Positions 6,007 to 37,635 of a stretch of 64,000 nt of DNA are shown here, piece by piece; within the stretch, counting starts at the first letter, position 1; each line of letters begins with the position of its first letter. The position numbers were made by a program, and so were the translations under genes. Origin of the DNA: a virus; IMG/VR virus record IMGVR_UViG_3300020183_000011; one strand, 5' to 3'. The notes below the pieces were generated by a model. That model searched no databases and had not been told where the DNA came from. It was given only the letters and a program-made list of their open reading frames with translations.

Positions 6007-6009
6007 ATA
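6002..6009 (+). promoter_or_regulatory. Late promoter
   Basis: TATAAATA. Confidence 0.8.
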
Positions 6010-6038
6010 ATAGTAATACCTTATATAGATGGAATAAA

Positions 6039-7712: not shown

Positions 7713-7715
7713 AAA

Positions 7716-11791: not shown

Positions 11792-11794
11792 ATA
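11787..11794 (+). promoter_or_regulatory. Late promoter
   Basis: TATAAATA, then AAGGAG SD and ATG 11821. Confidence 0.85.
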
Positions 11795-11820
11795 ACTAAT
11801 TACATTTAAGGAGTAATAAA

Positions 11821-17737: not shown

Positions 17738-18606
17738 AAGTACTAATCACAGGAGTTACAGGATACATCGGCTCACACTTAGCAAAGGTGTTATTTGAAG
17801 CTGGTCATAAGATTACCGGGATTGATATACAATGGAAGAAACATAATGATAAAGTGTCTCGTTACTGCCATCGCATATTAATCAAAGACGTAACTAAACA
17901 TATATGTGATGAAGACTATGACGTCATCGTACATCTTGCAGGGCTAATCCAAGTCGAAGAGAGCGTAGCATACCCAACAAAGTACTACTCAACAAACCTT
18001 GGTGGCACAGTAAACATGTTGAGACAAAACATCAACCATGAACCACACTTTATATTCGCATCGACAGCTGGAGCATTTGACGCTCAGTCGCCTTATGCTA
18101 GATCTAAAGTAGCTGCCGAAGATGTCATCAAAGAAAGATCAAAGAACTATACTATATTTAGGTTCTTTAATGTTGCTGGTTCTGATGGTATGCACAGACA
18201 AGTAGGTAGATCCTCACACTTGATTCGTACTGCTGCAGAAGCCGCAGCAGGTAAGAGGGATTACATGAACATTTATGGAGATGATTATGATACACCAGAT
18301 GGTAGTTGTGTTAGGGATTATATTCACGTTGTGGATCTTGTTAACGCTATTCGTGATACGATTAAGCATGGTCCCTTTAACACACCATACGAATGTATTG
18401 GTTCGGGCAAAGGGTACTCGGTCAAAGAAGTAGTTCAAACCATGAAAGATGTTACGGGTCAAGACTTTACCGTAAAGATGGAGGGTCGTAGAGCTGGAGA
18501 TCCTGCTTCTTTAGCAATTAGTAATAGATTCAACCTGTTACAGCCACAATATCAACTAAAAGATATGTGTCTATCTGCATACAACATTGAAATGGCCACT
18601 ATATAA
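17734..18606 (+). CDS. galE: UDP-glucose 4-epimerase
   Basis: TGVTGYIGSH, V.ES...P..YY..N, YARSK, R.FNVAG, DG.CVRDYIHV.DL, RR.GDP; start approximate. Confidence 0.88.
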   Translation: MKVLITGVTGYIGSHLAKVLFEAGHKITGIDIQWKKHNDKVSRYCHRILIKDVTKHICDEDYDVIVHLAGLIQVEESVAYPTKYYSTNLGGTVNMLRQNINHEPHFIFASTAGAFDAQSPYARSKVAAEDVIKERSKNYTIFRFFNVAGSDGMHRQVGRSSHLIRTAAEAAAGKRDYMNIYGDDYDTPDGSCVRDYIHVVDLVNAIRDTIKHGPFNTPYECIGSGKGYSVKEVVQTMKDVTGQDFTVKMEGRRAGDPASLAISNRFNLLQPQYQLKDMCLSAYNIEMATI

Positions 18607-18647: not shown

Positions 18648-20435
18648 ATGAAAAAAGTTTTAGATAATGGAATTCAGATAGACCTATCTCGGGACCAGTT
18701 ATTCGATGAATTAGGTATAATCAGGTTAAAAGAATCATACATGGCAGATAATGAAGAAAGTCCACAAGAAAGATTCGCGTTCGTATCAAATCATTTCGCA
18801 ACAGATAAATATCACGCACAAAGGTTGTATGAGTATAGTAGCAAGCATTGGTTAAGCTATGCTACACCGGTTTTATCGTTTGGTAGATCTAAACGCGGTT
18901 TACCGATATCATGTTTTTTAAACTTTATTGAAGATACGGCCGAAGGGTTGGTGGAGAACTTAAGTGAAACTAATTGGTTATCTATGCTTGGTGGTGGTGT
19001 TGGCATTGGCTTTGGAATTAGGTCTGCTGACGATAAGTCTACTGGCGTTATGCCTCATCTTAAAATGTATGATGCTAGCTCTCTTGCTTATCGTCAAGGC
19101 CGTACTCGTCGCGGCAGTTATGCTGCTTACCTGGATATTTCACATCCTGACATTTTAATGTTCCTTGAGATGCGTAAGCCAACAGGTGACCAAAACATGC
19201 GTTGCTTGAACTTACATCATGGTGTAAACATTCCAGATAGTTTCATGGAGATCATCGAAAGATGTATGATCGATGAAGCGGCTGATGATATATGGGAACT
19301 AAAAGACCCACACTCAGGTATAGTGACAGAAAAAGTATCAGCAAAAGAATTATGGCAAAAACTATTAGAACTTCGTATGCAAACGGGTGAACCGTACCTA
19401 CACTTTATCGATGAGTCTAATAGGAAGTTGCCACAATGGTTGAAGGATAAAGGATTACAAGTACATCAATCAAATCTTTGTTCTGAGATCATCCTACCTA
19501 CTAATGAAAAACGTACAGCAGTATGTTGTTTGTCTAGTTTAAACTTGGAGTATTATGATGATTGGAAAGATGATAAGTTGTTTCTTAAAGACGTTGCAGA
19601 GATGTTGGATAATGTGTTACAACACTTTATTGACAATGCTCCTTCTGTTATTAAGCGCGCTAAGTATTCTGCTTCTCGCGAACGGTCTATTGGTATTGGC
19701 GCTCTTGGTTTGCACGCTCTATTGCAGCGAAAGAATATCCCATGGGAGTCCGCGATGGCTACAGGACTCAATAAGCAGATATTCGCACATATTAGAGGGA
19801 GTCTCGATAAAGCAAACAAACAACTCGGAAAAGAAAGAGGAGAAGCGCCAGATGCCGAAGGCACTGGAAACAGGTTTAGTCATCTTATGGCTATTGCTCC
19901 CAATGCTAGCTCTTCTATCATTATGGGTAATACTTCCCCATCAATAGAACCATTTAGAGCAAATGCTTATAGACAAGATACATTATCAGGATCTCATCTA
20001 CATAAGAACCAGTACCTTGATAAGATACTCAAAGATAAAGCAGGAGATAAATACGATGAAGTTTGGTCTTCTATCATAGCAAACGATGGTTCAGTTCAAC
20101 ACCTAGATATCTTAGATGATTGGGCGAAAGACGTGTTTAAGACGTCTATGGAGATCGACCAACGTTGGGTAGTTCAACACGCAGCAGATCGTCAAGAGTT
20201 TATTGACCAAGCACAAAGCTTAAATGTATTCTTTAGACCTGACGCTCATATTAAATATATCCATGCAGTTCATTTCCAAGCATGGAAACAAAAACTTAAA
20301 ACTATGTACTACTGTAGATCAGATAAGATCGCTAAGGCTGATAAGGTAGCTAAGAAGATCGAGCGTGAAGTTATCGCAGAGATCGACTTAAAAGCTATGA
20401 CAGAAGGCGAAACTTGTTTAGCGTGCGAGGGATAA
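18648..20435 (+). CDS. nrdA: Ribonucleotide reductase class Ia alpha subunit (short, no ATP cone)
   Basis: PISCF, SNLCSEI, VCCLSSLN, AIAPNASSS, KTMYYCR, C-terminal CLACEG. Confidence 0.97.
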   Translation: MKKVLDNGIQIDLSRDQLFDELGIIRLKESYMADNEESPQERFAFVSNHFATDKYHAQRLYEYSSKHWLSYATPVLSFGRSKRGLPISCFLNFIEDTAEGLVENLSETNWLSMLGGGVGIGFGIRSADDKSTGVMPHLKMYDASSLAYRQGRTRRGSYAAYLDISHPDILMFLEMRKPTGDQNMRCLNLHHGVNIPDSFMEIIERCMIDEAADDIWELKDPHSGIVTEKVSAKELWQKLLELRMQTGEPYLHFIDESNRKLPQWLKDKGLQVHQSNLCSEIILPTNEKRTAVCCLSSLNLEYYDDWKDDKLFLKDVAEMLDNVLQHFIDNAPSVIKRAKYSASRERSIGIGALGLHALLQRKNIPWESAMATGLNKQIFAHIRGSLDKANKQLGKERGEAPDAEGTGNRFSHLMAIAPNASSSIIMGNTSPSIEPFRANAYRQDTLSGSHLHKNQYLDKILKDKAGDKYDEVWSSIIANDGSVQHLDILDDWAKDVFKTSMEIDQRWVVQHAADRQEFIDQAQSLNVFFRPDAHIKYIHAVHFQAWKQKLKTMYYCRSDKIAKADKVAKKIEREVIAEIDLKAMTEGETCLACEG

Positions 20436-20436
20436 T

Positions 20437-20628
20437 ATGCAACTAGAAGGAATGATGAAAAGATTAAAAGACGCTGGCCGTGATATTTTTATAGGGCTTA
20501 ACAATGCAGCAACATTAAAGAAAAGATATGTTGAGCCGCATGTTTATGTAAAGATAAATGGCAAGAAAGTAAAGATCATGGATATTACGGTAAGTGAATG
20601 TAATATATATTTGGAGACAGAGGAATGA
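20437..20628 (+). CDS. Hypothetical protein
   Basis: 63-aa ORF coupled to its neighbours. Confidence 0.55.
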   Translation: MQLEGMMKRLKDAGRDIFIGLNNAATLKKRYVEPHVYVKINGKKVKIMDITVSECNIYLETEE

Positions 20629-21377
20629 AGAAGTTTTTAGCAATACTACTATTAGGATTTACATCATTAGCATCAGCAAACCCAATAGATGACAAGTGTC
20701 CACAGCATGTATGGCAAGGTGCACCAGCATTAAAAGATGGTAATAACCAATACTTATGTCGTATCGGTTATGCAGTCAACTATAACTATGCTACAAAGGT
20801 TGCGTACTATGCAGTAGAACATGTAGTTCCAGCAAACTTAGTAAAGAACGCACCACGTAAAGACGAATTCAGAGAAGATCCAGAAGTTCCTGTACAACAT
20901 AGACAAACGCTTGCAGATTATACTGGTATGGGATATGATCGTGGTCATATTGCTCCAGCCGCAGACATGACATTTGATAAGACTGCTATGTCTGAATCGT
21001 TCTATCTAACTAACATGATGCCACAAGTGCCAGGTAATAATCGTGGTATTTGGAAATACCTTGAAGAGAACGTACGATATTGGGCACAAGTTAAAGGTGA
21101 AGTATACGTAATCACTGGAGCTTTGTTTGAAGGTGCACCATTAATGATGAATAAGGTTTCTGTACCATCACATGTATACAAGATCATCATCGATCCAAAG
21201 ACAGGCAGTCAAATAGCTTTCTTATTTCCTAATGAGAAGCTAGATCCAAAACTCATAGATAATTATTCAGTATCTGTTGAATCTATAGAACAAAGAGCTG
21301 GCATAAACTTCTCGCCAAAGTTACCTGATAGATGGATTGCTTACGAAAAAACTAAATTAAAACTAAAAGACTTCTAA
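20625..21377 (+). CDS. Secreted DNA/RNA non-specific endonuclease (NucA/EndoG family)
   Basis: Signal peptide (ASA cleavage); GYDRGHIAPAAD, ESFYLTNMMPQ...NRGIW..LE. Confidence 0.93.
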   Translation: MKKFLAILLLGFTSLASANPIDDKCPQHVWQGAPALKDGNNQYLCRIGYAVNYNYATKVAYYAVEHVVPANLVKNAPRKDEFREDPEVPVQHRQTLADYTGMGYDRGHIAPAADMTFDKTAMSESFYLTNMMPQVPGNNRGIWKYLEENVRYWAQVKGEVYVITGALFEGAPLMMNKVSVPSHVYKIIIDPKTGSQIAFLFPNEKLDPKLIDNYSVSVESIEQRAGINFSPKLPDRWIAYEKTKLKLKDF

Positions 21378-21378
21378 G

Positions 21379-22359
21379 ATGACAAATAAACTAACAGATA
21401 CCCGAGAGTATTTCAAACCGTTTAACTATCCATGGGCATATGAATCATGGTTAAAACACGAACAAGCACACTGGCTTCATACAGAAGTTCCGATGGCAGA
21501 AGACGTAAAAGATTGGAAAAAGAAACTAACTGCTGAAGAGAAACACTTCCTTACAAACATATTTAGGTTCTTTACACAAGGAGACATCGACGTTGCTGGT
21601 GGATATGTAAAGAACTACTTACCATACTTCCCTCAACCAGAGATTAGAATGATGCTTATGGGGTTTGCTGCTCGTGAAGCATTACACATCGCAGCATACT
21701 CTCATTTGATTGAGACATTAGGTATGCCTGAATCTACGTACAATGAATTCTTGGAATACCAAGAGATGAAAGATAAACACGATTACGTTACTGACCTATC
21801 TAGTCGAAATGGCGATCTTGATAGCACTGCCACTCACATCGCAGTATTCTCTGCTTTCACGGAGGGTATGCAGTTATTTAGTTCTTTCATTATGCTTCTT
21901 AATTTTCCAAGACATGGACTTATGAAAGGTATGGGTCAGATCGTTACATGGTCAATCGTAGACGAGACCATGCATGCTGAGAATATGATTAAACTATTCA
22001 AGACGTTTATCAAAGAGAACAACGAGATCTGGAATGATGATCTTAAGAGTCGTATATATACTATAGCAGAGAAGATGGTTGAACTCGAAGATAAGTTCAT
22101 CGACCTATCATTCTCTGGTACACACATGAGAGAACTTGAACCAGCAGACGTTAAACAATACATCCGTTACATCGCTGACAGACGTTTAATCTCATTAGGA
22201 TTAAAAGGTATCTTTAAAGTTAAAAAGAACCCATTACCATGGGTAGAGGAGATGATCAATGCTCCAGTTCATGGTAACTTCTTTGAGAACCGCGTTACAG
22301 ACTATGCCAAAGGTGCATTGAAAGGTTCTTGGCAGGATGTATGGGGTGGAGCCCAATAA
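21379..22359 (+). CDS. nrdB: Ribonucleotide reductase class Ia beta subunit
   Basis: FFTQGDIDV, REALHIAAYS, EGMQLFSSF, DETMH, NFFENRVTDY. Confidence 0.97.
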   Translation: MTNKLTDTREYFKPFNYPWAYESWLKHEQAHWLHTEVPMAEDVKDWKKKLTAEEKHFLTNIFRFFTQGDIDVAGGYVKNYLPYFPQPEIRMMLMGFAAREALHIAAYSHLIETLGMPESTYNEFLEYQEMKDKHDYVTDLSSRNGDLDSTATHIAVFSAFTEGMQLFSSFIMLLNFPRHGLMKGMGQIVTWSIVDETMHAENMIKLFKTFIKENNEIWNDDLKSRIYTIAEKMVELEDKFIDLSFSGTHMRELEPADVKQYIRYIADRRLISLGLKGIFKVKKNPLPWVEEMINAPVHGNFFENRVTDYAKGALKGSWQDVWGGAQ

Positions 22360-23209: not shown

Positions 23210-24190
23210 ATGAAGAGAGTATTGATCACAGGCGGAGCTGGTTTCATCGCACATCATGTAATTAACCACATTTTAAATACTACTGATTGGAATGTAGTAA
23301 CATTAGATCGATTAGATTTTTCTGGAAATTTAAATAGATTAGCTGAAGTTGTTCCAAACGACGGAAGAGTTAAAACTGTGTTTCATGATCTTAAAGCTGA
23401 ATTAAATTCACAAATAATCAAATCAATAGGTGATATAGATATCATTTTACATCTTGCTGCAGGTTCCCATGTGGATCGATCAATTGAATTCCCTATGGAG
23501 TTTGTTATGGACAATGTTGTTGGTACATGTAACATATTAAACTATGCAAGAACATTACCAAATTTAGAGCGGTTCATTTACTTCTCAACAGATGAAGTGT
23601 TTGGTCCTGCTCCAAATGGTATAAATTATAAAGAATATGACAGATATAATAGTTCTAATCCATACTCAGCTTCAAAAGCTGGCGGTGAAGAGCTTGCCGT
23701 TGCATTCGCTAATACATACAAGATGCCTCTTTATATTACTCATACCATGAACGTATTTGGGGAGAGACAACATCCTGAGAAATATATTCCGGTTTGTATC
23801 AAACGTGTAAGAGATGGTGAAAAAATCATCATCCACTCAGATCCAACTAAAACTATTCCTGGTAGCAGATGTTATATACATGCTTTAGATGTTGCAGAAG
23901 CTTTAATATTCATATTAAATCTAAAAGATCAATACAATGGTTCTAAATTCAATGTTGTAGGTAAAGAAGAAATAAATAATCTACAATTAGCACAAATTAT
24001 ATCTGATGCACAAGGCAAAAAACTTATCTATGAGTTATCGGACTTTCATAGTGCAAGACCCGGTCATGACTTACGATATGCTTTAGATGGTGGTTTATTA
24101 AGAGAACTTGGGTGGGAACCTAAGATATCGCTTAAAGAACGTATCAAAGAAGTCGTTGATTGGACATTAAAAAACGATAGATGGTTATAA
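23210..24190 (+). CDS. rfbB: dTDP-glucose 4,6-dehydratase-like NDP-sugar enzyme
   Basis: TGGAGFI, HLAA.SHVDRSI, STDEVFG, PYSASKA, RPGHDLRYALD. Confidence 0.88.
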   Translation: MKRVLITGGAGFIAHHVINHILNTTDWNVVTLDRLDFSGNLNRLAEVVPNDGRVKTVFHDLKAELNSQIIKSIGDIDIILHLAAGSHVDRSIEFPMEFVMDNVVGTCNILNYARTLPNLERFIYFSTDEVFGPAPNGINYKEYDRYNSSNPYSASKAGGEELAVAFANTYKMPLYITHTMNVFGERQHPEKYIPVCIKRVRDGEKIIIHSDPTKTIPGSRCYIHALDVAEALIFILNLKDQYNGSKFNVVGKEEINNLQLAQIISDAQGKKLIYELSDFHSARPGHDLRYALDGGLLRELGWEPKISLKERIKEVVDWTLKNDRWL

Positions 24191-24212: not shown

Positions 24213-24542
24213 ATGGATCAAATAACGATAGACGAATCAGCTGCTAATAAGATTAAAACTCTCTTAGCTGACGAGGAAAACAAAGATTTATTGCTACGCA
24301 TATTCGTGTCTGGAGGCGGGTGCTCCGGATTTCAATACGGGTTCACGTTTGATGAATGTCAAAATGAAGACGACTTTGTCATAGAACAATATGGTATTAA
24401 ACTATTAGTAGACGCCATGAGCATGCAGTATTTAACAGGTGCAGAGATAGGTTATAAAACATCTTTAATGGGAGAACAATTTGAGATAAAGAACCCAAAT
24501 GCTACAAGTAAATGTGGATGCGGTTCATCATTCTCAGCATAA
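24213..24542 (+). CDS. erpA: A-type Fe-S carrier ErpA/IscA
   Basis: [11 protein letters not shown]...NPNA...CGCGSSF. Confidence 0.92.
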
Positions 24543-24543
24543 T

Positions 24544-24951
24544 ATGGCTTATTCAGATAAAGTTTTAGATCACTATGAAAACCCGAGAAATGTAGGAAGC
24601 CTTGATAAAGCAGATCCAAATGTAGGAACAGGGATGGTGGGTGCACCTGCTTGCGGTGACGTCATGAAATTACAAATTCAAGTAGGAGAAGATGGTGTTA
24701 TCGAAGATGCAAAGTTTAAAACTTATGGTTGCGGTTCTGCTATTGCCAGTTCTAGTCTTGTTACAGAATGGCTCAAGGGCAAAACACTTGACGAGGCAAT
24801 TGCAATCAAGAATTCAGATATTGCGGAAGAATTAGCTTTACCTCCTGTAAAAATTCACTGTTCAGTTTTAGCTGAAGATGCTATTAAAGCAGCTATCGCT
24901 GATCTTCAAAATAAACAAGTAAAAGCAGCCAAGTGTGTCTGCAAAGTATGA
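24544..24951 (+). CDS. iscU: Fe-S scaffold IscU
   Basis: MAYSDKVLDHYENPRNVG, GAPACGDVM, GCGSAIASSS, LPPVKIHCS. Confidence 0.96.
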   Translation: MAYSDKVLDHYENPRNVGSLDKADPNVGTGMVGAPACGDVMKLQIQVGEDGVIEDAKFKTYGCGSAIASSSLVTEWLKGKTLDEAIAIKNSDIAEELALPPVKIHCSVLAEDAIKAAIADLQNKQVKAAKCVCKV

Positions 24952-26263: not shown

Positions 26264-26532
26264 TGGAAGATATAGCTGACTTAATAAGCAAGTATGGGTT
26301 TCCCATCGTTGCAGCAGGCGGATTAGGATACTTCGTCTACTATATATGGAAATGGGTAACTGAAGAGATAGACCCTGTAATAGGTGAATCAAATAAAGTT
26401 TTAATTGAACTGATCGATCGTATCCGCATGTTGGATAATGACTTGATCAGGCTCAACCAAAAAGTGAATGTCATTTTGTCTTTAAGAGAGAGGGAAGAAA
26501 ATGAAGTTCACGATAAGGATACTAAGTCTTAG
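26263..26532 (+). CDS. Small single-TM membrane protein (paralog 2)
   Basis: YGFPIVAA.GLGYFVYY, LIDRIRMLDNDLIRL; GTG start. Confidence 0.75.
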   Translation: MEDIADLISKYGFPIVAAGGLGYFVYYIWKWVTEEIDPVIGESNKVLIELIDRIRMLDNDLIRLNQKVNVILSLREREENEVHDKDTKS

Positions 26533-26953
26533 TATTTTACTGATAGGTTGTGTCGCTCAGGCCCAACCACTCCCTGATTATACGTTCAAGAATCCATCCT
26601 TTAATGGAAATGGATACAGTAGCCACATATTGACTATTGAAAATCAAGAACGAACACGAAAAGATAATATCAAGAAAGAGATCCAAGCTGCATTAGATAA
26701 AGCAAAAAACGATGCTAACAACACTAATGTAGCTAAGTTCCTTAACAACCTTGAAAGCCGTATATATGCACAGATTAGTCAAAACCTAGCAACAGAGATG
26801 TTTGCAGATGGTGGTGCAACAAGTGGTACATTAAATTTCGAAGGTAACATCATAAATTGGAACAGGACTGGTACTGAGATCACAATGAACGTGACTGACT
26901 ATCTAGGCAGCACAACGACTGTTGTTATACCACTAGGACAGTGGCAATTCTAA
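26501..26953 (+). CDS. csgF: Curli assembly component CsgF
   Basis: Signal peptide then YTFKNPSFNG; C-terminal G.TT...IP; adjacent to csgG. Confidence 0.85.
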   Translation: MKFTIRILSLSILLIGCVAQAQPLPDYTFKNPSFNGNGYSSHILTIENQERTRKDNIKKEIQAALDKAKNDANNTNVAKFLNNLESRIYAQISQNLATEMFADGGATSGTLNFEGNIINWNRTGTEITMNVTDYLGSTTTVVIPLGQWQF

Positions 26954-26954
26954 A

Positions 26955-27755
26955 ATGTATAAACTACTAATTTTATTATCGCTGATGTTTTTAGCTGGTT
27001 GTGCAACTACTCGCGTAGTCACTACACCAGAAAAGCCTGTAGAGGTGAAGAGTATCATGCAAAAAGAGTTTGATACTATACCTCCACCTGCTGGTAGACC
27101 GATTATCGTAGCTGTATATACGTTTATTGATAAGACTGGTCAAAGAAGACCTGCTGCTAATTTTGCAAACCTTAGTTCAGCGGTAACACAAGGAGCCGAG
27201 GCTTTCTTAATAAAGGCTTTACAAGATGTAGGTAAAGGTGTTTGGTTTGAAGTCGTCGAAAGGGTAGGTATCGATAGCTTGACTAAAGAGAGACAACTAA
27301 TTCGTCAGATGCGTGAGGCGTATGATGGTCCTAAAGCTAAACCGTTAGGTCCAATGCTTTATGCAGGTGTCATCGTAGAAGGTGGTATAACTGGATATGA
27401 TACAAGCGTTAAGAGTGGTGGTAGTGCTGCACGTATGTTAGGCATTGGACCACAGACACAATACAGCGAAGACATAGTAACAGTAAGTCTTAGAGTTATT
27501 AGTGTAAACTCTGGTAAAGTTTTAGCTGCTGTAAATATACAGAAAACTATTTACAGCGCTAGTGATAGCATGGCAGTATTAAAGTTTATTAAAGATGGAA
27601 CACAGGCATTTGAGATAGAAAGTGGGTTAACCATAAATGAGCCTGGAACTCAAGCAGTAAAAGCTGCTATAGAGAGTGCAGTAGTAGAGTTAATAAAAGA
27701 AGGTAGCAAGAAAGGTATCTGGGAATTCTCCTATGAACCCTTGCAACCACAATAA
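26955..27755 (+). CDS. csgG: Curli secretion channel lipoprotein CsgG
   Basis: Lipobox LAG-C; VAVY.F.DKTGQR, SSAVTQGA...LIKAL, WF.VVER..ID.L.KERQLIR, EGGI.GYD. Confidence 0.93.
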   Translation: MYKLLILLSLMFLAGCATTRVVTTPEKPVEVKSIMQKEFDTIPPPAGRPIIVAVYTFIDKTGQRRPAANFANLSSAVTQGAEAFLIKALQDVGKGVWFEVVERVGIDSLTKERQLIRQMREAYDGPKAKPLGPMLYAGVIVEGGITGYDTSVKSGGSAARMLGIGPQTQYSEDIVTVSLRVISVNSGKVLAAVNIQKTIYSASDSMAVLKFIKDGTQAFEIESGLTINEPGTQAVKAAIESAVVELIKEGSKKGIWEFSYEPLQPQ

Positions 27756-27761
27756 GGAAAG

Positions 27762-28550
27762 ATGATGATAAAATCATTAAAACTTTTTATCATGATTTTA
27801 TTATTAAGTTTCAATGCATGGGCTGCAGACAATAGTATCTACATTGATCAAAGTGGTGATAACAGCACCATCGATGTGATACAAACTGGTGCAGGTAACG
27901 TCATACGTGGCATACAAGGAGTTGGTACAGGTAACACAACACCAGCAAAGATGTATGGTAACAACAGTGTAATCGATATCCAACAAATTGGTAGTACTAA
28001 CACATTAAACTTAGGTTTAAACGTAAGTACAGCAGTTGGTCGTGCGTATGGTATCGACTTAACATACTATGTAACTGGTAATAATGGTACAGCAACCATC
28101 AACAGTAACAATGCTGGTTCAGGTACAAGTGGAAGTAACTTCATAGATGTGCGTCAAACTGGTAACAGTGCAAGCATTAACTTGAACGTATTAGGTAGTA
28201 AGAATGACTTTACTGCTGTTACATCAGGTGGAGCTTCTAACAGTATCACTGCTACTATTAATGCAAACGAGACAGTAAGTAATATTAGTATGACTGGTGG
28301 TGCAAGTAATACATTTACTGGTACTCTTAGCAGCAACAAAGGTCAAGTTAACGTAACTACTGTTGGCGCAAGTAATGGTGTGACACTATCGCAAACTGGT
28401 ACTGCTGGTATTAATGGTCATGAATTTACACTAAACCTAACTGGATCTAGTAACACGTTTGGTGTTACTCAATCTGGAACTATTGACACAACAGTTAATG
28501 TATTGAGTTCTGGAAGCGGTAATACATGGAACATTACTACTGGAAATTAA
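27762..28550 (+). CDS. Curlin-like (CsgA/CsgB-type) repeat protein
   Basis: Signal peptide; DNSIYIDQSGDN, QTGAGN, QIGSTN, QTGNS repeats; G/N/S/T rich. Confidence 0.75.
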   Translation: MMIKSLKLFIMILLLSFNAWAADNSIYIDQSGDNSTIDVIQTGAGNVIRGIQGVGTGNTTPAKMYGNNSVIDIQQIGSTNTLNLGLNVSTAVGRAYGIDLTYYVTGNNGTATINSNNAGSGTSGSNFIDVRQTGNSASINLNVLGSKNDFTAVTSGGASNSITATINANETVSNISMTGGASNTFTGTLSSNKGQVNVTTVGASNGVTLSQTGTAGINGHEFTLNLTGSSNTFGVTQSGTIDTTVNVLSSGSGNTWNITTGN

Positions 28551-29644
28551 TATGTATCATATTGCTCTGGCCGCAACTAACACTTGCGGCCGTGGGTAGT
28601 ATAACTGAACTTCAAAACACCCCCGCAAACATCCAACGTAAAGGCTCTAGTCTTACCGGAAATAAAGGTATAGGTGTAGAGATGAACGACGTCGTCAAGA
28701 CGGCTCAAGGCAAAACAGGTATAACTTTTGCTGACGACACAAGAGTACAAGTAAGTGAAAACAGTAAGCTAGTCATCGATGACTTTGTGTATGACCCTAA
28801 TAGCAAGAAGGGTGGTAAGCTTGCAATGAAGGTCGCTTTAGGCACAGTACGTTATGCATCAGGTGCAGTCGCACATAATAACCCAGACAACGTTAAGATC
28901 AATACACCAAGCGCTACTATCGCAGTCAGAGGTACAGACTTTACTGCTACAGTAGACGAGTTAGGTAGGAGCACCATAATCTTATTACCAAGTTGTCCTA
29001 AAGATTATAAAGACGTCATACTTGATTGTAAGACTGGTAAAATCGAAGTACTTACAGACGAAGGCAAAGTTGTATTAGATCAACCGTTTCAAGCCACGAG
29101 GGTTGATAACAGAGATAGTAAGCCGTTTAAACCAGTTACTTTAAACTTAGATGAAACTCAAATAAGTAACATACTCATATTAAGTCCACCAAAAGAGCTT
29201 AGAGAGTCTGATGAAGATAAATCTAAGAAGAGATCTGAAGTAAAAGGTGCACTAGATGTAGACTTCTTAGCGGAGAACAAACTCATAAACGTGTTAGAAA
29301 AACAGGCAGCTGAGACATATAAGAGCAAGCTAGATCGAAACTTCTTAGATAATGATTTATTAGCAAACATACTAGACATCATCAATGCACAATTAGCAGC
29401 TCAATTAGATCTATTAGGTAAGACTAAGTCTGGATTATTACCAGATTATATACCAACTTCTGGTGTATTAGTTGAAGTCGATGATCTACAAGTCACATTA
29501 TGTCGTGAAGGTAACGGAGATGTACAATGCATCACGACTCCAAAAAATCAAAATACAACCATAACACAAACTCAAGGACCAGTAGAGATCAAGAATAGGA
29601 TTAACAATGGTGGTAACACGGTTATTAACGCTACTCAAAATTAG
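28526..29644 (+). CDS. FecR-domain periplasmic protein
   Basis: Signal peptide; D.V.T...I.F.D.T.V...ENS.L.ID.F.YDP, G.VRYASG, I.TPSATIAVRGTDF. Confidence 0.88.
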   Translation: MEHYYWKLICIILLWPQLTLAAVGSITELQNTPANIQRKGSSLTGNKGIGVEMNDVVKTAQGKTGITFADDTRVQVSENSKLVIDDFVYDPNSKKGGKLAMKVALGTVRYASGAVAHNNPDNVKINTPSATIAVRGTDFTATVDELGRSTIILLPSCPKDYKDVILDCKTGKIEVLTDEGKVVLDQPFQATRVDNRDSKPFKPVTLNLDETQISNILILSPPKELRESDEDKSKKRSEVKGALDVDFLAENKLINVLEKQAAETYKSKLDRNFLDNDLLANILDIINAQLAAQLDLLGKTKSGLLPDYIPTSGVLVEVDDLQVTLCREGNGDVQCITTPKNQNTTITQTQGPVEIKNRINNGGNTVINATQN

Positions 29645-31130
29645 TCTATTGTTATTTTGCTTAGGTGCAAAAGCTGAAACTTTAGGTATAGGCTTTGAAA
29701 ATAATAGCATAGACGGGTGGACAGTTTCTGGAACATTAGCCGCTACGAAGAGTACATGGAGTTCTACAGGAGTGGGTGTAGCTCTTACCACAGGAGTTAC
29801 AAACTATAGTCCAGGTGGAGGTAAGACGTGGAACATAAACCCATATGGATCTTATATGGCTAGTATACAAGCTGGATCTTCAAACACTGTTACTTTTGAT
29901 AGTGCTATCAGCAGCTTAGGGTTGACTGGCACTGAAAATACTGCTATTAAACAATACCTGACATATCAATCACAAAACGGTGGAGGTGGAAACCCTACTC
30001 CAACTAATTCTAGCTGGATGAAAAAAACTTTTACGTTACAAACTGGTGTAACATACACGATTGCTTGGCAATACTTGAGTACAGACTACACACCATATAA
30101 TGACGGTAGTATCATGACACTAACACACACTAGTAATGCTAATATCATGCCAACACTAAACAACCTTGCACAAAGATATGCATTGTTAGGTTTTACAAAT
30201 CCTGGAACCGGTAACTATGCTACAGGCAGTTATGGAGCTACAGGATGGCAAGTAGCTCAGTTTACTGTTCCAGAAAATGGTAGTTATACTTTAGGCTTTG
30301 CATCGTTTAACTTAGGTGACACTGCATTGAGTCCTATCTTATTCATAGACGTCATGCAAGGAACTACTACACTCAATGGACAAACGTTTACACCAGTAAC
30401 ACCAAATGCTGGTAGCTCTGCTCCACCTCCTCCAGCTCCAGGCCCATCTTACAGTTCTGGAATAACACCAGCACAAACGACTACAAAGAACAATGCAAAT
30501 ACTATCAGACAAGGACAACATGGTAACGAGATATACGTTGAACAGTCTGGAAATAACAACACCTTTGATATTAGTCAAGGAGCTACAGTTACGGGTAAAG
30601 CTAGGATAGAACTATATTCTACGGGAGATAATAATACTTTTAACTTGAAACAAGGAAAGAACTCTGATGGCACTACGCCTTTGGCTGATAGTAATAATCA
30701 TTACTTATACTTTAACCTAAACGGTAGCTCAAACAATATCACTACAAGACAAGTGGATGGGACGACTTCAGGATCTGGTCATTTTAATCATTCGACTGTG
30801 GCTGGAAGCAATAACAGTATATTAAACTTACAAACTGGATCTGGTAGCAAGACTTTATTTCAAAGCGTAACTGGTAATAATAACACTGTGTCGACTACTC
30901 AGCAAGATTCTGGTCAACACTACTTAGACCTTAAACTAACTGGTCCTGGTCATAACACGACCATACTTCAGTCTGGTTCAGGTAATCATGCAGCAACCAT
31001 AGACTTAACAAATTCTGGTGGAGCAGCTACATTAAACCTTAATCAGTCAGGATCAACTAATCAAGTTTACAGTATCCAACAAAGTTGTGTTACTGCTGCA
31101 GGTTGCTCAACAAGCATCACACAACCATAG
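29607..31130 (+). CDS. Secreted protein with N-terminal beta-rich domain and C-terminal curlin-like repeats
   Basis: Signal peptide; NEIYVEQSGNNN, QTGSG, QSGSGNH, QSGSTNQ repeats; C-terminal C....C. Confidence 0.72.
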   Translation: MVVTRLLTLLKISLLLFCLGAKAETLGIGFENNSIDGWTVSGTLAATKSTWSSTGVGVALTTGVTNYSPGGGKTWNINPYGSYMASIQAGSSNTVTFDSAISSLGLTGTENTAIKQYLTYQSQNGGGGNPTPTNSSWMKKTFTLQTGVTYTIAWQYLSTDYTPYNDGSIMTLTHTSNANIMPTLNNLAQRYALLGFTNPGTGNYATGSYGATGWQVAQFTVPENGSYTLGFASFNLGDTALSPILFIDVMQGTTTLNGQTFTPVTPNAGSSAPPPPAPGPSYSSGITPAQTTTKNNANTIRQGQHGNEIYVEQSGNNNTFDISQGATVTGKARIELYSTGDNNTFNLKQGKNSDGTTPLADSNNHYLYFNLNGSSNNITTRQVDGTTSGSGHFNHSTVAGSNNSILNLQTGSGSKTLFQSVTGNNNTVSTTQQDSGQHYLDLKLTGPGHNTTILQSGSGNHAATIDLTNSGGAATLNLNQSGSTNQVYSIQQSCVTAAGCSTSITQP

Positions 31131-31137
31131 ATAAATA
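31130..31137 (+). promoter_or_regulatory. Late promoter variant
   Basis: GATAAATA 4 nt before ATG 31142. Confidence 0.65.
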
Positions 31138-31141
31138 ACAA

Positions 31142-31885
31142 ATGAAAAAGTATAAGACTATTTGCATCTCTGACACTCATCTTGGTTCTAAGGATGCTAA
31201 GGCTGATCTACTTAATAATTTCCTTAAACACCATGAATGTGATAATCTGTTCTTAGTAGGAGACATCATAGATGGATGGAAGATACAGCAGAACAAATGG
31301 AAATGGAAGCAAAGCCATACTAATGTTATCCGTAGGATACTAGGTTATGCTAAACGTGGAACTAAGGTTACATATGTGACTGGCAACCATGATGAGTTCC
31401 TTAGACCATTCGTCAATCAGTTTGCTTTAGGTTCTATTACTATATGTAACCAAGCAGAGTATAGAGACACTGATGGAAACCTATTCTTAGTAACACATGG
31501 TGACATGTTTGATGGTATTACAAGAGTTGGTAAATGGATTGGGTTTCTTGGCGATACAGCTTATGATTGTGTATTATGGATCAATACTAAATTTAACTAC
31601 ATAAGACATAGGTTAGGGTTTGGTTATTGGTCATTAAGTAAGTTTCTTAAACATCAAGTAAAGAAAGCGATAGATTTTGTATTCAAATTCGAAGAAAACC
31701 TTGCAGGATACTGTGAACGAAAAAACTTTGATGGAGTTATTTGCGGCCATATCCATACTCCACAGATTAAGACAATCAATGGAATAATCTACATGAATGA
31801 TGGTGACTGGGTAGAATCATGCTCAGCTCTTGTAGAACATGAAGATGGTAAATGGGAAATAATTTATTGGAATGAGATCATATGA
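31142..31885 (+). CDS. plcP: Metallophosphoesterase, PlcP-type phospholipase C (often mis-annotated LpxH)
   Basis: SDTHLG, GDIIDGW, GNHDEFLR, HGD.FD, ICGHIH, YMNDGDWVESCSALVEH; coupled to a GT4 gene. Confidence 0.75.
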   Translation: MKKYKTICISDTHLGSKDAKADLLNNFLKHHECDNLFLVGDIIDGWKIQQNKWKWKQSHTNVIRRILGYAKRGTKVTYVTGNHDEFLRPFVNQFALGSITICNQAEYRDTDGNLFLVTHGDMFDGITRVGKWIGFLGDTAYDCVLWINTKFNYIRHRLGFGYWSLSKFLKHQVKKAIDFVFKFEENLAGYCERKNFDGVICGHIHTPQIKTINGIIYMNDGDWVESCSALVEHEDGKWEIIYWNEII

Positions 31886-32874
31886 AGATATTAATAGTAA
31901 CAGACAATTTAAGAGATCAAGTCAATGGCGTTGTCACTACATACAAAAATATTGAGGATCATGCTGTTTCTGCTGGTCATAGTATTGTTTATCTTGATCC
32001 CGGGAAGTTCCGTCATATTAGCTGTCCTTTTTATCCTGAGGTCAAACTTTCCCTTCCTTCGTTCTTTATCAGTAAGATTAAGAAGATGGGTGCGGATCGT
32101 ATTCACATCGCGACAGAGGGACCGCTAGGACTATTTGCAAAGTTCTACTGTGACGCAAACAAGATACCATACACTACAGCGTATCATACTAAGTTTCCAG
32201 AATTCTTAAAAAAATTATTATGGATACCTACATCTATCACATATAGGTATCTTAAATGGTTTCACAAGTATTCAAAAGCTGTGTTAGTACCGAGTGAATC
32301 GATGAGCATAGAATTGCAATCTAAGGGGTTTGTAAATCTAGTTATATGGACTAGAGGCGTATCAAAAGATCTCATAGAAAAGCGTAAAGACAAAACAAAG
32401 AATATGCCTCCAAAGATTTTGTATGTAGGTCGGGTAAGCAAAGAAAAGAACTTAGAAGACTTATGTAATTTACAAAATATGTATGATATCACTGTAGTCG
32501 GAGACGGGCCTATTTTACCTCAGCTGATCCGCAAATACAGAAAGGTTAACTTTACTGGTTATAAATTTGGAGATGAATTAAAGCAAATATATGTAGAGAA
32601 CGACATATTTGTTTTCCCAAGTCTAACTGATACTTTTGGTATAGTTATCATAGAAGCTTTATGTAATGGATTACCTGTAGCAGCATATAGGGTAACTGGT
32701 CCACAAGATATCATTGAATATGGTGTTACAGGATATCTAAGCATGTATGGCAATGGGTTACAGTCTGCTATAGAAAAATGTAAGTCATTAGATAACGTTA
32801 AAGTACAAGAATTATCTATTAAAACATGGACTTGGAAAAATTGTTTTGATATATTTATCAAAGCTGTTAAATAA
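31882..32874 (+). CDS. GT4 glycosyltransferase, Agt-like glycolipid synthase
   Basis: MKILIVTD....QVNGVV.T, IHIATEGPLG, TAYHTKFPE, W.RGV, YVGRVSKEKN, FPS.TDTFG.V..EA. Confidence 0.85.
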   Translation: MKILIVTDNLRDQVNGVVTTYKNIEDHAVSAGHSIVYLDPGKFRHISCPFYPEVKLSLPSFFISKIKKMGADRIHIATEGPLGLFAKFYCDANKIPYTTAYHTKFPEFLKKLLWIPTSITYRYLKWFHKYSKAVLVPSESMSIELQSKGFVNLVIWTRGVSKDLIEKRKDKTKNMPPKILYVGRVSKEKNLEDLCNLQNMYDITVVGDGPILPQLIRKYRKVNFTGYKFGDELKQIYVENDIFVFPSLTDTFGIVIIEALCNGLPVAAYRVTGPQDIIEYGVTGYLSMYGNGLQSAIEKCKSLDNVKVQELSIKTWTWKNCFDIFIKAVK

Positions 32875-32910: not shown

Positions 32911-33546
32911 ATGAGTTTCCTTGTAGCTAACTTGCCTCCAGTACATTGCTATGTTCGTAAGGAGTTCTTATATGATTTTAAATCTGGTCATGGCGAATAT
33001 GAGTCATGTATATGGGTTAGTATCAAGAGCCTTCGTAGTCAAGCATTTAGGATAGAGTCATACTTCCCAAGATACGGAGCTTTATATGATAAGTTGCCGT
33101 TGCATGCTTATGTAAGTAGAACGACTGATCTAGAACCTGAAAAGTTCTTATCACTAGACACTTTACAGATATGGGATTGTTTTAGTTATGACATAGCAGT
33201 CATACAAAAAGCATTCTTAAGGAACTTAAGCTGTAAGGTGTATGCTAAAGATAAACAGTTTCATCATGGTGACTATATGTTTACGGTAGATAATTCAGCT
33301 CCAGACTTAAACATACTAGATACGAGTTACAGTGAAGTTCCAGAAGATCATAAGAGTTTTAACTTTATACAACTAAACAATGGACAGTATGCTGCTCAGC
33401 CGAATAACAGGTGTATATTCTTTGATGCAGCAAGTAATCCAAAAGAGATGTTATTCCCTGATTTTAAAGTCTGCACCAAGAAGTATGTGGTAGAGACTAA
33501 TCCTAAATGGAGACTAGGTGATAGCGATACAGTAACATACGAATAA
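32911..33546 (+). CDS. Conserved phage hypothetical protein
   Basis: ANLPP...VRKEFLYD...GHGE, YGALYDKLP, WDCFSY, HKS.N.I.L.NGQ.AAQPNNR. Confidence 0.75.
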   Translation: MSFLVANLPPVHCYVRKEFLYDFKSGHGEYESCIWVSIKSLRSQAFRIESYFPRYGALYDKLPLHAYVSRTTDLEPEKFLSLDTLQIWDCFSYDIAVIQKAFLRNLSCKVYAKDKQFHHGDYMFTVDNSAPDLNILDTSYSEVPEDHKSFNFIQLNNGQYAAQPNNRCIFFDAASNPKEMLFPDFKVCTKKYVVETNPKWRLGDSDTVTYE

Positions 33547-33549
33547 ATA
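33542..33549 (+). promoter_or_regulatory. Late promoter variant
   Basis: AATAAATA 5 nt before ATG 33555. Confidence 0.6.
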
Positions 33550-33554
33550 AACAT

Positions 33555-35564
33555 ATGAAAAAATTACTTAGCCCATGGTTTGCACTAGTCACCCTATTAG
33601 TTTTAGTAGGCATTAGAGTATCAGATCCATCATTTGTAGAGTCAGTTCGTCTTAGATACTTTGACACGCTGATCACAAGTAAACCTGTAGTACAATCAAA
33701 ACAAGTCCATGTCGTAAACATAGATGATAAGTCTATAGAACACCTTGGGCAATTTCCATTTCCAAGGACCCAATATGCAAATATCATCGAAGATCTTTAC
33801 AGCCGTGGGGCTGGTCTTGTTGTCTTTAATCTGTTTATGCCTGATAGTGATAGGTTTGGAAAAGATGCTGGACTGGCTGATACCCTTACTAGGCATCCTG
33901 TAGTATTACCACAAGTCGCAACATCAGACAAACAAAAACCTGGTGCATTTAGACCGGGAGTATCAGAAATCGGAGGCAAAGCTTCTGATCATGCAGTAAA
34001 CTATCCGGGCATTCAAGCCAATATATCATCATTTAACAGCAAAGCTGCTGGAATAGGAGTCGTAAATGTATTACCTGAAATTGATGGTGTTGTTCGTCGT
34101 ATCCCTATGGTCGTCGCAAGTGATGGCCAATTGTACCCAAGTATCAGTCTTGAAACAATGCGTGTTGCAGTTGGAGACCCAAGTTTCCAAGTCAAGTCAA
34201 ACGCAAACGGGATTGAAGCTGTCAGAATACCTAGCTTCGCCAAGGTCGTCACAGACCCAATGGGTAGAATATGGGTCGATTGGAGTTCCACGCCGATTGA
34301 ACACAGTCTTGTGGGATTACCCAAGTCATTCGATGGAGGTATCGTCATCGTTGGGTTATCGGCACGCGGACTTAACAATCCCGTTGCAACCCCACGAGGA
34401 GCCGTCTATCCTCATTATGTACAAGCTTCAGTTTTAGATACACTAACATCTGGCGCCAACATATCTCGTCCTGATTGGGCAGATGGTGCTGAGATGCTTG
34501 CTATAGTTGTATTATCAATCATCATAATCTTTTTAACGAGGTGGAAATATGCTATTCTTCCTATCATTAGTATTATTGGTTCTATATATTACGCTTCTCG
34601 CTACGTGTTCGCCCATCAAGGTATTCTGTTGGACGGCATTTATCCTATTATTAGCTTGTCTGTTGTCTATGGTCATGCATACACCGTTAAGTTCATTTCT
34701 GAATTAAACCAAAAGCTACAGATCAAGAAACAATTTGGTACATACTTATCGCCAGCAATGGTTGAAAAGTTACAAAAGAACCCAGAGCTATTGAAGCTTG
34801 GTGGTGAGACTAGAGAATTATCAATCATGTTTACAGACGTTCGTGGCTTCACGACTATCTCAGAACATTATGGTAAAGACGTTCAAGGTCTGACTAAGAT
34901 CATGAACAGATACATGACAGCCATGACAGCAAAGATCATTGAAAATAATGGTACACTTGATAAGTATATAGGTGATGCTCAGATGGCTTTTTGGAATGCT
35001 CCTTTAGATGATAAGGATCATGCATTAAATGCAGTTAAGACTGGATTGGAGATGTTAAATGATTTGGATAAATTCAATGAAGAGATCGCTAAAGAAAATA
35101 TACCAGCGTTCGGTATGGGACTTGGTATTAACAGCGGCGACGTGGTTGTTGGGAATATGGGTAGCAGCCAGCGTTTTGATTACACTTGTCTTGGTGATGC
35201 GGTCAATCTTGCTTCCCGTTTAGAAGGACAATCAAAGAACTATGGTGTACGTATCGTATTAGGTACAAAGACCGCAGAGTATGCTAAAGAAGTTTATTCA
35301 GTCGTAGAGATGGATACGATCGCTGTTAAGGGCAAGACCGAAGGAGTTAAGGTATACACGATAGGCGAGACTATTAAACATAAACATGAAGAGTATCTAA
35401 AAGAATACTATCGCGGTAATTGGAAACGTGCTACAGAATGGGCACAAGAACTCATCGATGATAAGAACGTTACTATCAAAGACTACTATCACAAGATGAT
35501 AGAACGAATGGACGAAGGTCTCCCTGCTGAGTGGGACGGTGTATATCGAGCCACAAGCAAGTAA
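33555..35564 (+). CDS. CHASE2-sensor class III adenylate cyclase
   Basis: IDDKSI...GQFPFPR and DGVVRRIP (CHASE2); three TMs; F.DVRGFT, DKYIGDA, DYT.LGDAVNLASRLE (Lys/Asp ATP-specifying residues). Confidence 0.93.
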   Translation: MKKLLSPWFALVTLLVLVGIRVSDPSFVESVRLRYFDTLITSKPVVQSKQVHVVNIDDKSIEHLGQFPFPRTQYANIIEDLYSRGAGLVVFNLFMPDSDRFGKDAGLADTLTRHPVVLPQVATSDKQKPGAFRPGVSEIGGKASDHAVNYPGIQANISSFNSKAAGIGVVNVLPEIDGVVRRIPMVVASDGQLYPSISLETMRVAVGDPSFQVKSNANGIEAVRIPSFAKVVTDPMGRIWVDWSSTPIEHSLVGLPKSFDGGIVIVGLSARGLNNPVATPRGAVYPHYVQASVLDTLTSGANISRPDWADGAEMLAIVVLSIIIIFLTRWKYAILPIISIIGSIYYASRYVFAHQGILLDGIYPIISLSVVYGHAYTVKFISELNQKLQIKKQFGTYLSPAMVEKLQKNPELLKLGGETRELSIMFTDVRGFTTISEHYGKDVQGLTKIMNRYMTAMTAKIIENNGTLDKYIGDAQMAFWNAPLDDKDHALNAVKTGLEMLNDLDKFNEEIAKENIPAFGMGLGINSGDVVVGNMGSSQRFDYTCLGDAVNLASRLEGQSKNYGVRIVLGTKTAEYAKEVYSVVEMDTIAVKGKTEGVKVYTIGETIKHKHEEYLKEYYRGNWKRATEWAQELIDDKNVTIKDYYHKMIERMDEGLPAEWDGVYRATSK

Positions 35565-36280
35565 TGAAGTTCTTAATTTTACTTTTATTAGCATTCAACT
35601 GCTATGCTCAAGACATAACTGCTAACTCATGGGTGGTGACAGATGAAGATGGAAAGGTGATCGCGGGGCAAAATATTGCAGAAGTCAGGTCAATAGCATC
35701 TATCACAAAACTAGTCACAGCGATGACCATATTAAACAGCGGAGAGAACATAGAAGCTCCAGTCAAGACTAAAGCTTTTGGTATGATAACACGCCATCAG
35801 CTGATAGACATGGCCATAGTAAAGTCAAATAACCAAACTGCAGACTTATTATGTCAGTTATATGTAGGTGGATATGACAGGTGTATAGCTGACATGAATC
35901 ACTTGTTATTTAAGCTTAACCTACTCAACACCATCGTCTATGATGCTACTGGTCTTGATAGACGTAACAAATCCACAGCCATGGAGCTAACACAGTTAGT
36001 CCAGGAAGCTGCAAAATATCCAGAATTAGTCAACGCATCTCAACAGGCAAAGATCAAGATTAAGACCAAGAAGCGTTTCTGGGTCTTTAAGAACACTAAC
36101 CCTCTCATAGGTAAACGTCAGGACATACTGATCTCCAAGACAGGCTATACAAGGCCTGCCGGAGGCTGCCTGGCGATGCTTATGTCCACAGATAAGGGCC
36201 AGAGATCAGTCGTGGTTTTAGGCTCCCAGAACACTCATACACGCATCCCCGAAGCTGAATTCTTAGCTGAAAATTACTAA
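35564..36280 (+). CDS. Serine DD-peptidase S11 (PbpG/DacA-like)
   Basis: Signal peptide; ASITK, SNN, KTG motifs. Confidence 0.9.
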   Translation: MKFLILLLLAFNCYAQDITANSWVVTDEDGKVIAGQNIAEVRSIASITKLVTAMTILNSGENIEAPVKTKAFGMITRHQLIDMAIVKSNNQTADLLCQLYVGGYDRCIADMNHLLFKLNLLNTIVYDATGLDRRNKSTAMELTQLVQEAAKYPELVNASQQAKIKIKTKKRFWVFKNTNPLIGKRQDILISKTGYTRPAGGCLAMLMSTDKGQRSVVVLGSQNTHTRIPEAEFLAENY

Positions 36281-37496: not shown

Positions 37497-37559
37497 TTTA
37501 AAGTACATTAGAGGGGTTAAACTAAGGTACCTCTATTTGACCTAGTGTACTTTAAAAAG
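37494..37559 (+). ncRNA. Candidate structured RNA 2 / long inverted repeat abutting the tRNA
   Basis: CTTTTTAAAGTACATTAG pairs with CTAGTGTACTTTAAAAAG (18 bp, one G-U). Confidence 0.5.
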
Positions 37560-37635
37560 GGCCTATAGCTCAGTTGGTTAGAGCAGAGGACTCATAATCC
37601 TTTGGTCCATGGTTCGAGTCCATGTGGGCCCACCA
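37559..37635 (+). tRNA. tRNA with CAT anticodon, Ile2 (lysidine) type
   Basis: GGGCCTA acceptor stem, AGTTGGTTAGAGC D-arm, CT-CAT-AA loop, GGTTCGAGTCC T-arm, encoded CCA; resembles ileX-type rather than Met tRNAs. Confidence 0.9.

Follow-up and report, generated by a model that had tools for sequence, protein, structure and literature searches.

The window analysed here is a stretch of 64,000 nucleotides of viral DNA, IMG/VR record IMGVR_UViG_3300020183_000011, and its subject is a pair of adjacent genes at 31142-32874 that are predicted to encode enzymes of membrane lipid renovation. The first gene (31142-31885, + strand) encodes a predicted PlcP-family metallophosphoesterase of 247 amino acids, which has the Pfam domain Metallophos and no signal peptide. 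The second (31882-32874, + strand) encodes a predicted Agt/GTcp-type glycosyltransferase of family GT4, with 330 amino acids and the Pfam domains Glyco_transf_4 and Glycos_transf_1, which together cover both Rossmann halves. The two open reading frames (ORFs) share four nucleotides, in the form ATGA. An earlier, sequence-only reading of this DNA had described an overlapping metallophosphoesterase and GT4 pair and had quoted motifs for each enzyme. Both ORFs are present on the + strand with the ATGA overlap, and each of the motifs is found in the proteins. Judging from sequence comparison, three things are established for the pair: the family membership of both proteins, its conservation in cells and phages, and the existence of virus-specific clades.

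The comparisons identify the first gene product as a member of the PlcP family that resembles LpxH in fold only. Its motifs are SDTHLG at residue 10, GDIIDGW at 40, GNHD at 81, THGD at 118, GHIH at 202, and GDWVES at 221. The metal ligands (D11, H13, D41, N82, H119, H203, and H205) are invariant in an alignment of 25 family members, and the GDWVES block, which is found throughout the family, is kept in the window esterase. On the LpxH equivalog models of NCBIfam the esterase scores far below the cut-offs, with 43.1 bits versus 134 for NF003743 and 32.7 versus 190.35 for TIGR01854. A sequence search of PDB gave no match at E<=0.01, with LpxH structures among the entries searched, and PHROGs has no dedicated family for this protein, giving just weak matches to generic phosphoesterases. 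When bacterial genomes were scanned, patterns derived from the esterase protein by itself likewise found nothing. The scan succeeded with the family alignment as query: in a set with one genome per bacterial species it found relatives at 45-53% identity, including those of Pseudomonas, Burkholderia, Paraburkholderia, Methylocystis, and many other Alpha-, Beta-, and Gammaproteobacteria.

The separation from LpxH is clearest in bacteria that have both proteins. Five bacterial genomes have a separate true LpxH, which scores 238-335 bits on the LpxH model, and a plcP-type gene that scores just 35-55. In these genomes the plcP-type gene is the one match of the window esterase (46-54% identity), and the true LpxH is not detected in any of them. 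When the LpxH proteins of the five genomes are used as the outgroup of a tree, they are split off with 100% support by a branch of 3.79 changes per site, the longest in the tree, and the window esterase is on the PlcP side. The sequence-only reading had favored PlcP over LpxH and had named phylogeny as a way to tell them apart; the cut-offs of the hidden Markov models, the genome-wide matches, and the tree agree with it. Identity to the proteins of plcP loci is 48% for Burkholderia, 51% for Pseudomonas, and 46% for Methylocystis, these being proxies from the same genus or family as characterized PlcPs. For comparison, PA3219 shares 46-47% identity with the PlcPs from Phaeobacter and from Sinorhizobium (PMC8528852). 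The arrangement plcP-agt-dagK is present in all genomes of the Burkholderia cepacia complex, with PlcP more than 84% identical to BCAL2364, which has been tested by mutation (PMC13691135). The assignment to the PlcP family is based on the scores below the LpxH cut-offs, the paralogy with true LpxH, the split in the tree, and the identity of 45-54% to proteins of bacterial plcP loci. As a family member the esterase is predicted to be a Mn-dependent phospholipase C that releases diacylglycerol. Its AlphaFold2 model has a predicted local distance difference test score (pLDDT) of 84.5, with a confident core and a helical insert at about residues 120-195. The best structural match is LpxH, with a template modeling (TM) score of about 0.58 and an identity of just 17-21%, and the insert sits where LpxH has its lipid-binding cap.

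The second gene product is predicted to be a UDP-sugar:diacylglycerol glycosyltransferase of the Agt/GTcp type. Its motifs are NGV at residue 15, EGPLG at 79, YHTKF at 101, GRVSKEKN at 183, and FPSLTDTFG at 245. The hallmarks of GTcp, the Agt of SAR11, are the motifs GRVAXEKN and FPSXTDTFG, a His104-Asp256 dyad, and a set of essential donor-site residues; the Asp of the dyad is not replaceable by Glu, since D256E lowers the activity by more than 90%, and Arg163 and Trp320 have been proposed as diacylglycerol contacts (PMC8231724). With GTcp numbering mapped by motif and offset, without the GTcp sequence, the window GT4 has the dyad as H102 and D250 and the counterparts of Arg163 and Trp320 as R158 and W318. 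Both R158 and W318, along with G16, G80, G83, R184, K189, T251, F252, G253, and E258, are kept in the window protein and in 54 bacterial GT4s that are adjacent to plcP. Identity to GT4s next to bacterial plcP is 36-45%. In one Burkholderia genome (G003) the sole match of the window GT4 at E<=1e-5 is the gene directly 3' of plcP (45% identity, 269 bits). The AlphaFold2 model (pLDDT 89.3) is a confident GT-B fold, most similar among PDB entries to retaining GT4 enzymes that use UDP-sugars. The Agt-type assignment, also proposed from the sequence alone, is supported by the GTcp motifs, the catalytic residues, and the single Burkholderia match beside plcP. Among the viral GT4s as a group the FPSxTDTFG motif varies, and in 20 of 30 its Thr-Asp is replaced by Trp-Glu. 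Because the D256E change cuts the activity of GTcp, these 20 may use another donor or acceptor.

The pairing of the two genes is conserved in bacteria and in phages. An Agt-type GT4 is found directly 3' of the esterase in 57 of the 80 closest bacterial loci, which are the best 80 of at least 600 candidates, and this plcP-agt arrangement is the 'type 2' of PMC4796936. In phages a glycosyltransferase is directly 3' of the esterase in 69 of the 86 loci examined. It is an Agt-type GT4 in 38 of the 86 and a GT2-family transferase of 238 amino acids in another 31 (for example at 6904-7620 of locus L030), while 17 have neither type, some of them at contig ends. The frequency of a directly adjacent GT4 in both phage and bacterial loci shows that the adjacency is not due to chance. 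By their gene content the GT2-bearing loci are a second type of cassette beside the GT4 cassette.

Relatives of the pair, as recognized by homology, are common in uncultured phages, where they usually carry the incorrect name of a lipid A enzyme. With a minimum identity of 61%, the esterase is encoded by at least 96 IMG/VR contigs, some of them 329-383 kb long, and some of the esterase protein clusters contain hundreds of metagenomic members. The top metagenomic homologs of the esterase have 66-98% identity, and the context was that of a phage in all four cases read. In the first the order is nrdA-esterase-nrdB in T4-like genomes, and in the second, from a jumbo phage, it is TauD, acyl carrier protein, desaturase, S-adenosylhomocysteine hydrolase, esterase, and GT4. 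The third is a 209-kb contig with many small genes and an HNH endonuclease, and the fourth has rIIB and ligase as neighbors. A cellular origin was considered for the high-identity homologs on contigs of 100-350 kb and was dropped, as the four contexts read were all those of phages, with nearby genes for RecA/UvsX, nrdA/nrdB, SegE, RNaseH, rIIB, and ligase.

The sites occupied by phage esterase-glycosyltransferase pairs include the position between nrdA and nrdB and positions beside a fatty-acid desaturase or beside pstS. In 15 loci the esterase has a fatty-acid desaturase no more than about 5 kb away, and in one jumbo-phage contig (three loci) acyl carrier protein is present as well. Positions 5812-12622 of locus L174, from phage contigs of 253-345 kb, contain genes for a TauD-like dioxygenase, acyl carrier protein, fatty-acid desaturase, S-adenosylhomocysteine hydrolase, a PlcP-like esterase, a GT4, and an outer membrane protein beta-barrel. 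Going by these annotations, the cluster is a lipid-centered auxiliary island. The slot between nrdA and nrdB is held by a PlcP-like esterase in related T4-like phages (loci L019-L026 and L177-L179); in the window an Endonuclease_NS gene (20625-21377) lies between the two (18648-22359).

The phage proteins form clades of their own. In the esterase tree the IMG/VR copies (22 after removal of near-duplicates) and the window protein form one clade with 98% support, and the viral GT4s are set apart from the bacterial GT4s by a branch with 100% support. The trees look like the result of an old acquisition that later spread among phages, not of recent capture from a host. The esterases of Pelagibacter phage Mosig EXVC030M (QOI69083.1, 47% identity to the window esterase), Synechococcus phage S-SRM01 (QPX48289.1, 36% identity), and one faecal phage contig branch outside the main viral clade. 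Mosig and S-SRM01 are T4-like Kyanoviridae. Their esterases are both annotated as UDP-2,3-diacylglucosamine hydrolase, and neither phage has an annotated glycosyltransferase beside the gene. In phage Mosig (host HTCC1062) the esterase is divergently adjacent to pstS.

Two kinds of upstream element bear on the expression of the esterase. The first is the motif GATAAATA at 31130-31137 (+ strand), which is similar to the T4 late promoter (NATAAATA) and ends 4 nucleotides 5' of the esterase start codon. On the + strand NATAAATA starts at positions 1670, 7705, 24200, 25974, 31131, 33543, and 62970. These seven copies are 11-13 nucleotides 5' of an ATG, that of the esterase and those of the genes starting at 1681, 7716, 24213, 25985, 33555, and 62981. 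Since 7 of the 23 + strand copies of ATAAATA lie 11-13 nucleotides 5' of an ORF start, and about 0.08 would be expected at random, the GATAAATA/ATAAATA motif is positionally real. Across the window ATAAATA is not enriched (28 found versus 29.9 expected). Among 60 distinct related phage loci, 12 have ATAAATA at -12/-13 of the esterase, and others have TAAATA variants. If this is a T4-type late promoter, the start site would be so near the ATG that there would be almost no leader, and the transcripts would be nearly leaderless. Predicted sigma-70 promoters and terminators around the pair are no more frequent than in shuffled sequences. The late-type promoter that had been proposed for the pair is thus only partly supported: a motif is present at a non-random position 5' of the start, but there is no overall enrichment and the leader would be close to zero in length. 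It is best regarded as a candidate T4-type late promoter defined by its position.

The second element is found in related phages. The direct repeat TGTAAY-N5-TGTAAY is present in 25 copies in 782 kb of related phage loci, and 19 of these copies, which vary in their spacers, are 38-69 nucleotides 5' of the esterase start. Even the relaxed form TGTMAY-N5-TGTMAY occurs just 8 times in 751 kb of bacterial loci. The phage repeat shares an 11-bp period and most of its bases with the Pho box, which has the consensus CTGTCATNNNNCTGTCAT (PMC8528852). In four loci (L027, L030, L036, and L047) a true pstS adjoins the pair, with the order esterase, GT2 transferase, and pstS. The TGTAAY repeat is also found about 60 nucleotides 5' of pstS in three of them, L027, L030, and L036 (400 bits versus the PstS equivalog cut-off of 339). 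In L030 the repeats are at 5963-5979 and 7624-7640, and pstS is at 7684-8688. These motifs make PhoB control of the esterase and pstS probable in the repeat-bearing relatives. No pstS homologue is found in the window.

The gene content of the window identifies it as a T4-like phage genome, densely packed and with genes mostly on the + strand. Near the pair are genes for a DnaB-type helicase, a primase, ribonucleotide reductase, a tail protein, and a gp5-type baseplate hub with lysozyme, and gp32 and gp59 are also encoded in the window. The nearest isolates are Methylophilales phage Melnitz, whose helicase is 63% identical to that of the window, and cyanomyophages, with a helicase identity of about 60%. 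When 20 kb of the window was compared to INPHARED by megablast, there was no match and so no near-identical genome. Overlapping iron-sulfur assembly genes, IscA-like (Fe-S_biosyn) and IscU/NifU_N, are found at 24213-24951, and there is one tRNA-Met (CAT) gene at 37559-37635. The GC content falls to 27% at 60001-62000, compared to about 38% in the rest of the window.

The genes that flank the pair are all on the + strand. Upstream is a curli-type locus (26501-31130), in which Pfam identifies CsgF (26501-26953), CsgG (26955-27755), a curlin-like repeat protein (27762-28550), and a FecR-domain protein (28526-29644). The CsgG proteins of Melnitz and of Pelagibacter phage HTVC008M match the one encoded here. 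The last gene of the locus encodes a curlin-like repeat protein of 507 amino acids (29607-31130) and ends 11 nucleotides 5' of the esterase. Downstream (32911-36280) are a conserved phage protein (phrog_3704, 32911-33546), a CHASE2 class III cyclase (33555-35564) with a full-length match to phrog_35576 at 946 bits, and an S11 D-Ala-D-Ala peptidase (35531-36280). From their annotations and positions, the curli-type locus and the downstream genes are considered the context of the pair, with no demonstrated membership in it. The order in which curli genes precede the esterase recurs in 11 related phage loci, and most esterase-glycosyltransferase pairs occur without it. Eleven related phage loci have a CHASE2 cyclase behind the esterase or behind the pair. 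The sequence-only reading had also placed GalE and an RfbB-like enzyme nearby and had suggested that they adjust sugar donors. Two genes for short-chain dehydrogenase/reductase (SDR) enzymes do exist, at 17722-18606 and 23210-24190, but they are 13.5 kb and 7 kb upstream of the pair and score below the NCBIfam cut-offs. A role in adjusting sugar donors is not upheld, as loose proximity is their sole connection to the pair.

Taken together, the pair is probably a phage-borne version of the PlcP-Agt operon by which bacteria renovate their lipids, and it would free membrane phosphorus while making glycolipids. The esterase would act as a phospholipase C at the cytoplasmic face of the membrane, cleaving phosphatidylethanolamine and phosphatidylglycerol of the host to diacylglycerol and a phospho-alcohol. 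The translationally coupled GT4 would then transfer glucose or glucuronic acid, or possibly galactose, from a UDP-sugar to diacylglycerol, forming phosphorus-free glycolipids. In this way the bilayer would be kept intact, and diacylglycerol would not build up. The released phosphate esters could be used by the infected cell, and the likeliest gain would be extra phosphorus for phage DNA synthesis. From the family assignments and the gene context we infer what the two enzymes do, which sugar donor is used, when the genes are expressed, and how the phage benefits. Phosphorus mining is a reasonable inference as to purpose, because Pho-box-like repeats and pstS adjoin the esterase in relatives and the Mosig esterase is beside pstS. 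A broader proposal can be made, to which we give somewhat less than an even chance: that the cassette is an old, virus-specific lineage in which a PlcP-type esterase is combined with an interchangeable GT4 or GT2 transferase, and which in some lineages is wired to Pho control and linked to pstS, and that during infection it turns phospholipid of the host membrane into glycolipid, so that the phosphorus can go into virion DNA.

Several observations weigh against lipid renovation for phosphorus. The window has no Pho-box-like repeat of the form TGTMAY-N5-TGTMAY anywhere, and the pair is just behind a curlin-like gene; for these reasons the window esterase may be expressed together with the envelope locus instead of responding to phosphate. 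Identity between the viral clade and any cellular PlcP is just about 50%, and the substrate of the clade could have changed. The helical insert of the esterase is poorly modelled, with pLDDT below 50 at residues 126-141, and therefore the substrate is not readable from the model. At the position where Asp is required in GTcp, two-thirds of the viral GT4s examined (20 of 30) have Glu, though not the window GT4, which keeps Asp. Also, the bacterial comparison draws on the best-scoring part of the candidates, and it uses proxies of the same genus or family together with published motifs, not SMc00171, MED193_17359, PB7211_983/960, PA3219/18, or BCAL2364/65 themselves.

Other explanations accept or dispute the enzyme assignments to different degrees. 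The enzymes may be PlcP and Agt but serve to remodel the envelope as part of a late envelope island, supporting curli-type secretion, blocking superinfection, or changing the cell surface. This is unlikely, although it has more in its favor than the other alternatives. The position of the pair 11 nucleotides behind the curlin-like gene and before the CHASE2 cyclase and S11 peptidase is consistent with it, as are the recurrence of the curli-esterase-cyclase order in 11 phage loci, the lack of a Pho box at the window pair, and published work that connects phage attachment and the protein content of membranes with lipid remodelling (PMC9804370). However, the majority of phage pairs have neither curli genes nor a cyclase and have nrdA/nrdB, a desaturase, or pstS as neighbors instead, and the Pho-box-like repeats common to the esterase and pstS point to phosphate control in those relatives. 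It is also conceivable, but improbable, that the viral clade has shifted function, so that the esterase acts on another phosphoester and the GT4 glycosylates something other than a lipid, for instance a small molecule or the neighboring curlin-like proteins. Both viral clades are on supported branches apart from the cellular ones, many viral GT4s have the Trp-Glu change in the catalytic motif, and the nearest solved GT4s use small molecules, for example tetrahydrobiopterin and malate. Against this, the window GT4 keeps all the residues that are essential in GTcp, including the Arg and Trp proposed to contact diacylglycerol, the esterase keeps all of its metal ligands and the GDWVES block, and the esterase-glycosyltransferase pairing is maintained as in cellular lipid operons.

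In the explanation that follows automatic annotation, the esterase would be an LpxH that has diverged, and it would modify lipid A or lipopolysaccharide together with the GT4, a lipopolysaccharide glycosyltransferase. LpxH is the best NCBIfam name for the esterase as well as its best structural match, JGI and GenBank label relatives as UDP-2,3-diacylglucosamine hydrolase, and surveys of auxiliary metabolic genes file them under lipopolysaccharide biosynthesis. But the score is 43 bits against a cut-off of 134, and the structural match is at 17-21% identity. Bacteria with homologs of the esterase also have a true LpxH that the window protein does not detect, and the branch between the two is fully supported. 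In addition, the GT4 has motifs that are specific to Agt, with Asp at the site where GT4s usually have Glu. This explanation is highly improbable for the pair, and an LpxH identity of the esterase was rejected because of the scores below the cut-offs, the paralogous true LpxH, the genome-wide matches, and the tree.

A PlcP-Agt pair in a phage has parallels in several known systems. The bacterial PlcP-Agt operons of S. meliloti (SMc00171), Phaeobacter (MED193_17359), SAR11 HTCC7211 (PB7211_983/960), P. aeruginosa (PA3219/PA3218), B. cenocepacia (BCAL2364/65), and Methylosinus OB3b have the same two families in the same order and with the same coupling. The identity of the window proteins, 45-54% to plcP-locus proteins and 36-45% to GT4s, is in the range found among characterized members, as measured with proxies, and the signature motifs and catalytic residues of the GT4 are kept. 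Unlike these operons, the window pair is in a lytic T4-like phage, belongs to its own viral clades, and has no dagK partner. It also lacks a Pho box, which is a regulatory and not a family-defining feature, and it lies behind a curli-type locus. With LpxH, the name given by automatic annotation, the esterase shares a calcineurin-like metallophosphoesterase core and a helical insertion, but it is far below the equivalog cut-offs and in a separate clade, and its homologs co-occur with true LpxH. The homologous esterases of Mosig and S-SRM01 are likewise in T4-like genomes; unlike the window esterase they have no annotated neighboring glycosyltransferase and fall outside the main viral clade. The phosphate-stress genes of cyanomyophages and pelagiphages (pstS, phoH, and phoA) have the same proposed benefit, more phosphorus for replication. 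They differ in that the pair would tap an internal pool, membrane phospholipid, and not the uptake of external phosphate.

In kind, the predicted pathway is a known bacterial one in a new carrier. A literature search, with most subscription journals outside its scope, found no paper joining plcP with auxiliary metabolic genes and none joining lipid remodelling with phage-encoded, phosphorus, and glycolipid. The papers describing the isolation of Mosig and S-SRM01 do not mention the esterase gene, and a paper on pelagimyophages covers curli genes and lipopolysaccharide-type glycosyltransferases but not a PlcP-Agt-like pair. Two viral surveys list 'lpxH' as an auxiliary metabolic gene of lipopolysaccharide biosynthesis. 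The impression that this is not a well-characterized phage pathway agrees with the search, in which no paper on a phage plcP was found and the surveys give 'lpxH'. Because the viral esterase is filed in this way, its meaning has been misread.

Lipid renovation by phages would add to the ways in which they obtain phosphorus. Phosphorus often limits phage production in surface waters. To our knowledge the known phage answers, pstS, phoH, and phoA, all act in uptake or signalling. If the interpretation is correct, the pair adds a different route, one that draws on the membrane phospholipid of the host while the cell stays intact until lysis. The esterase gene is not rare, being present in at least 96 IMG/VR contigs that include those of jumbo phages larger than 300 kb. 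If the broader proposal of a virus-specific cassette lineage holds, membrane lipid would be a previously uncounted source of phosphorus for viral production in phosphate-poor waters.

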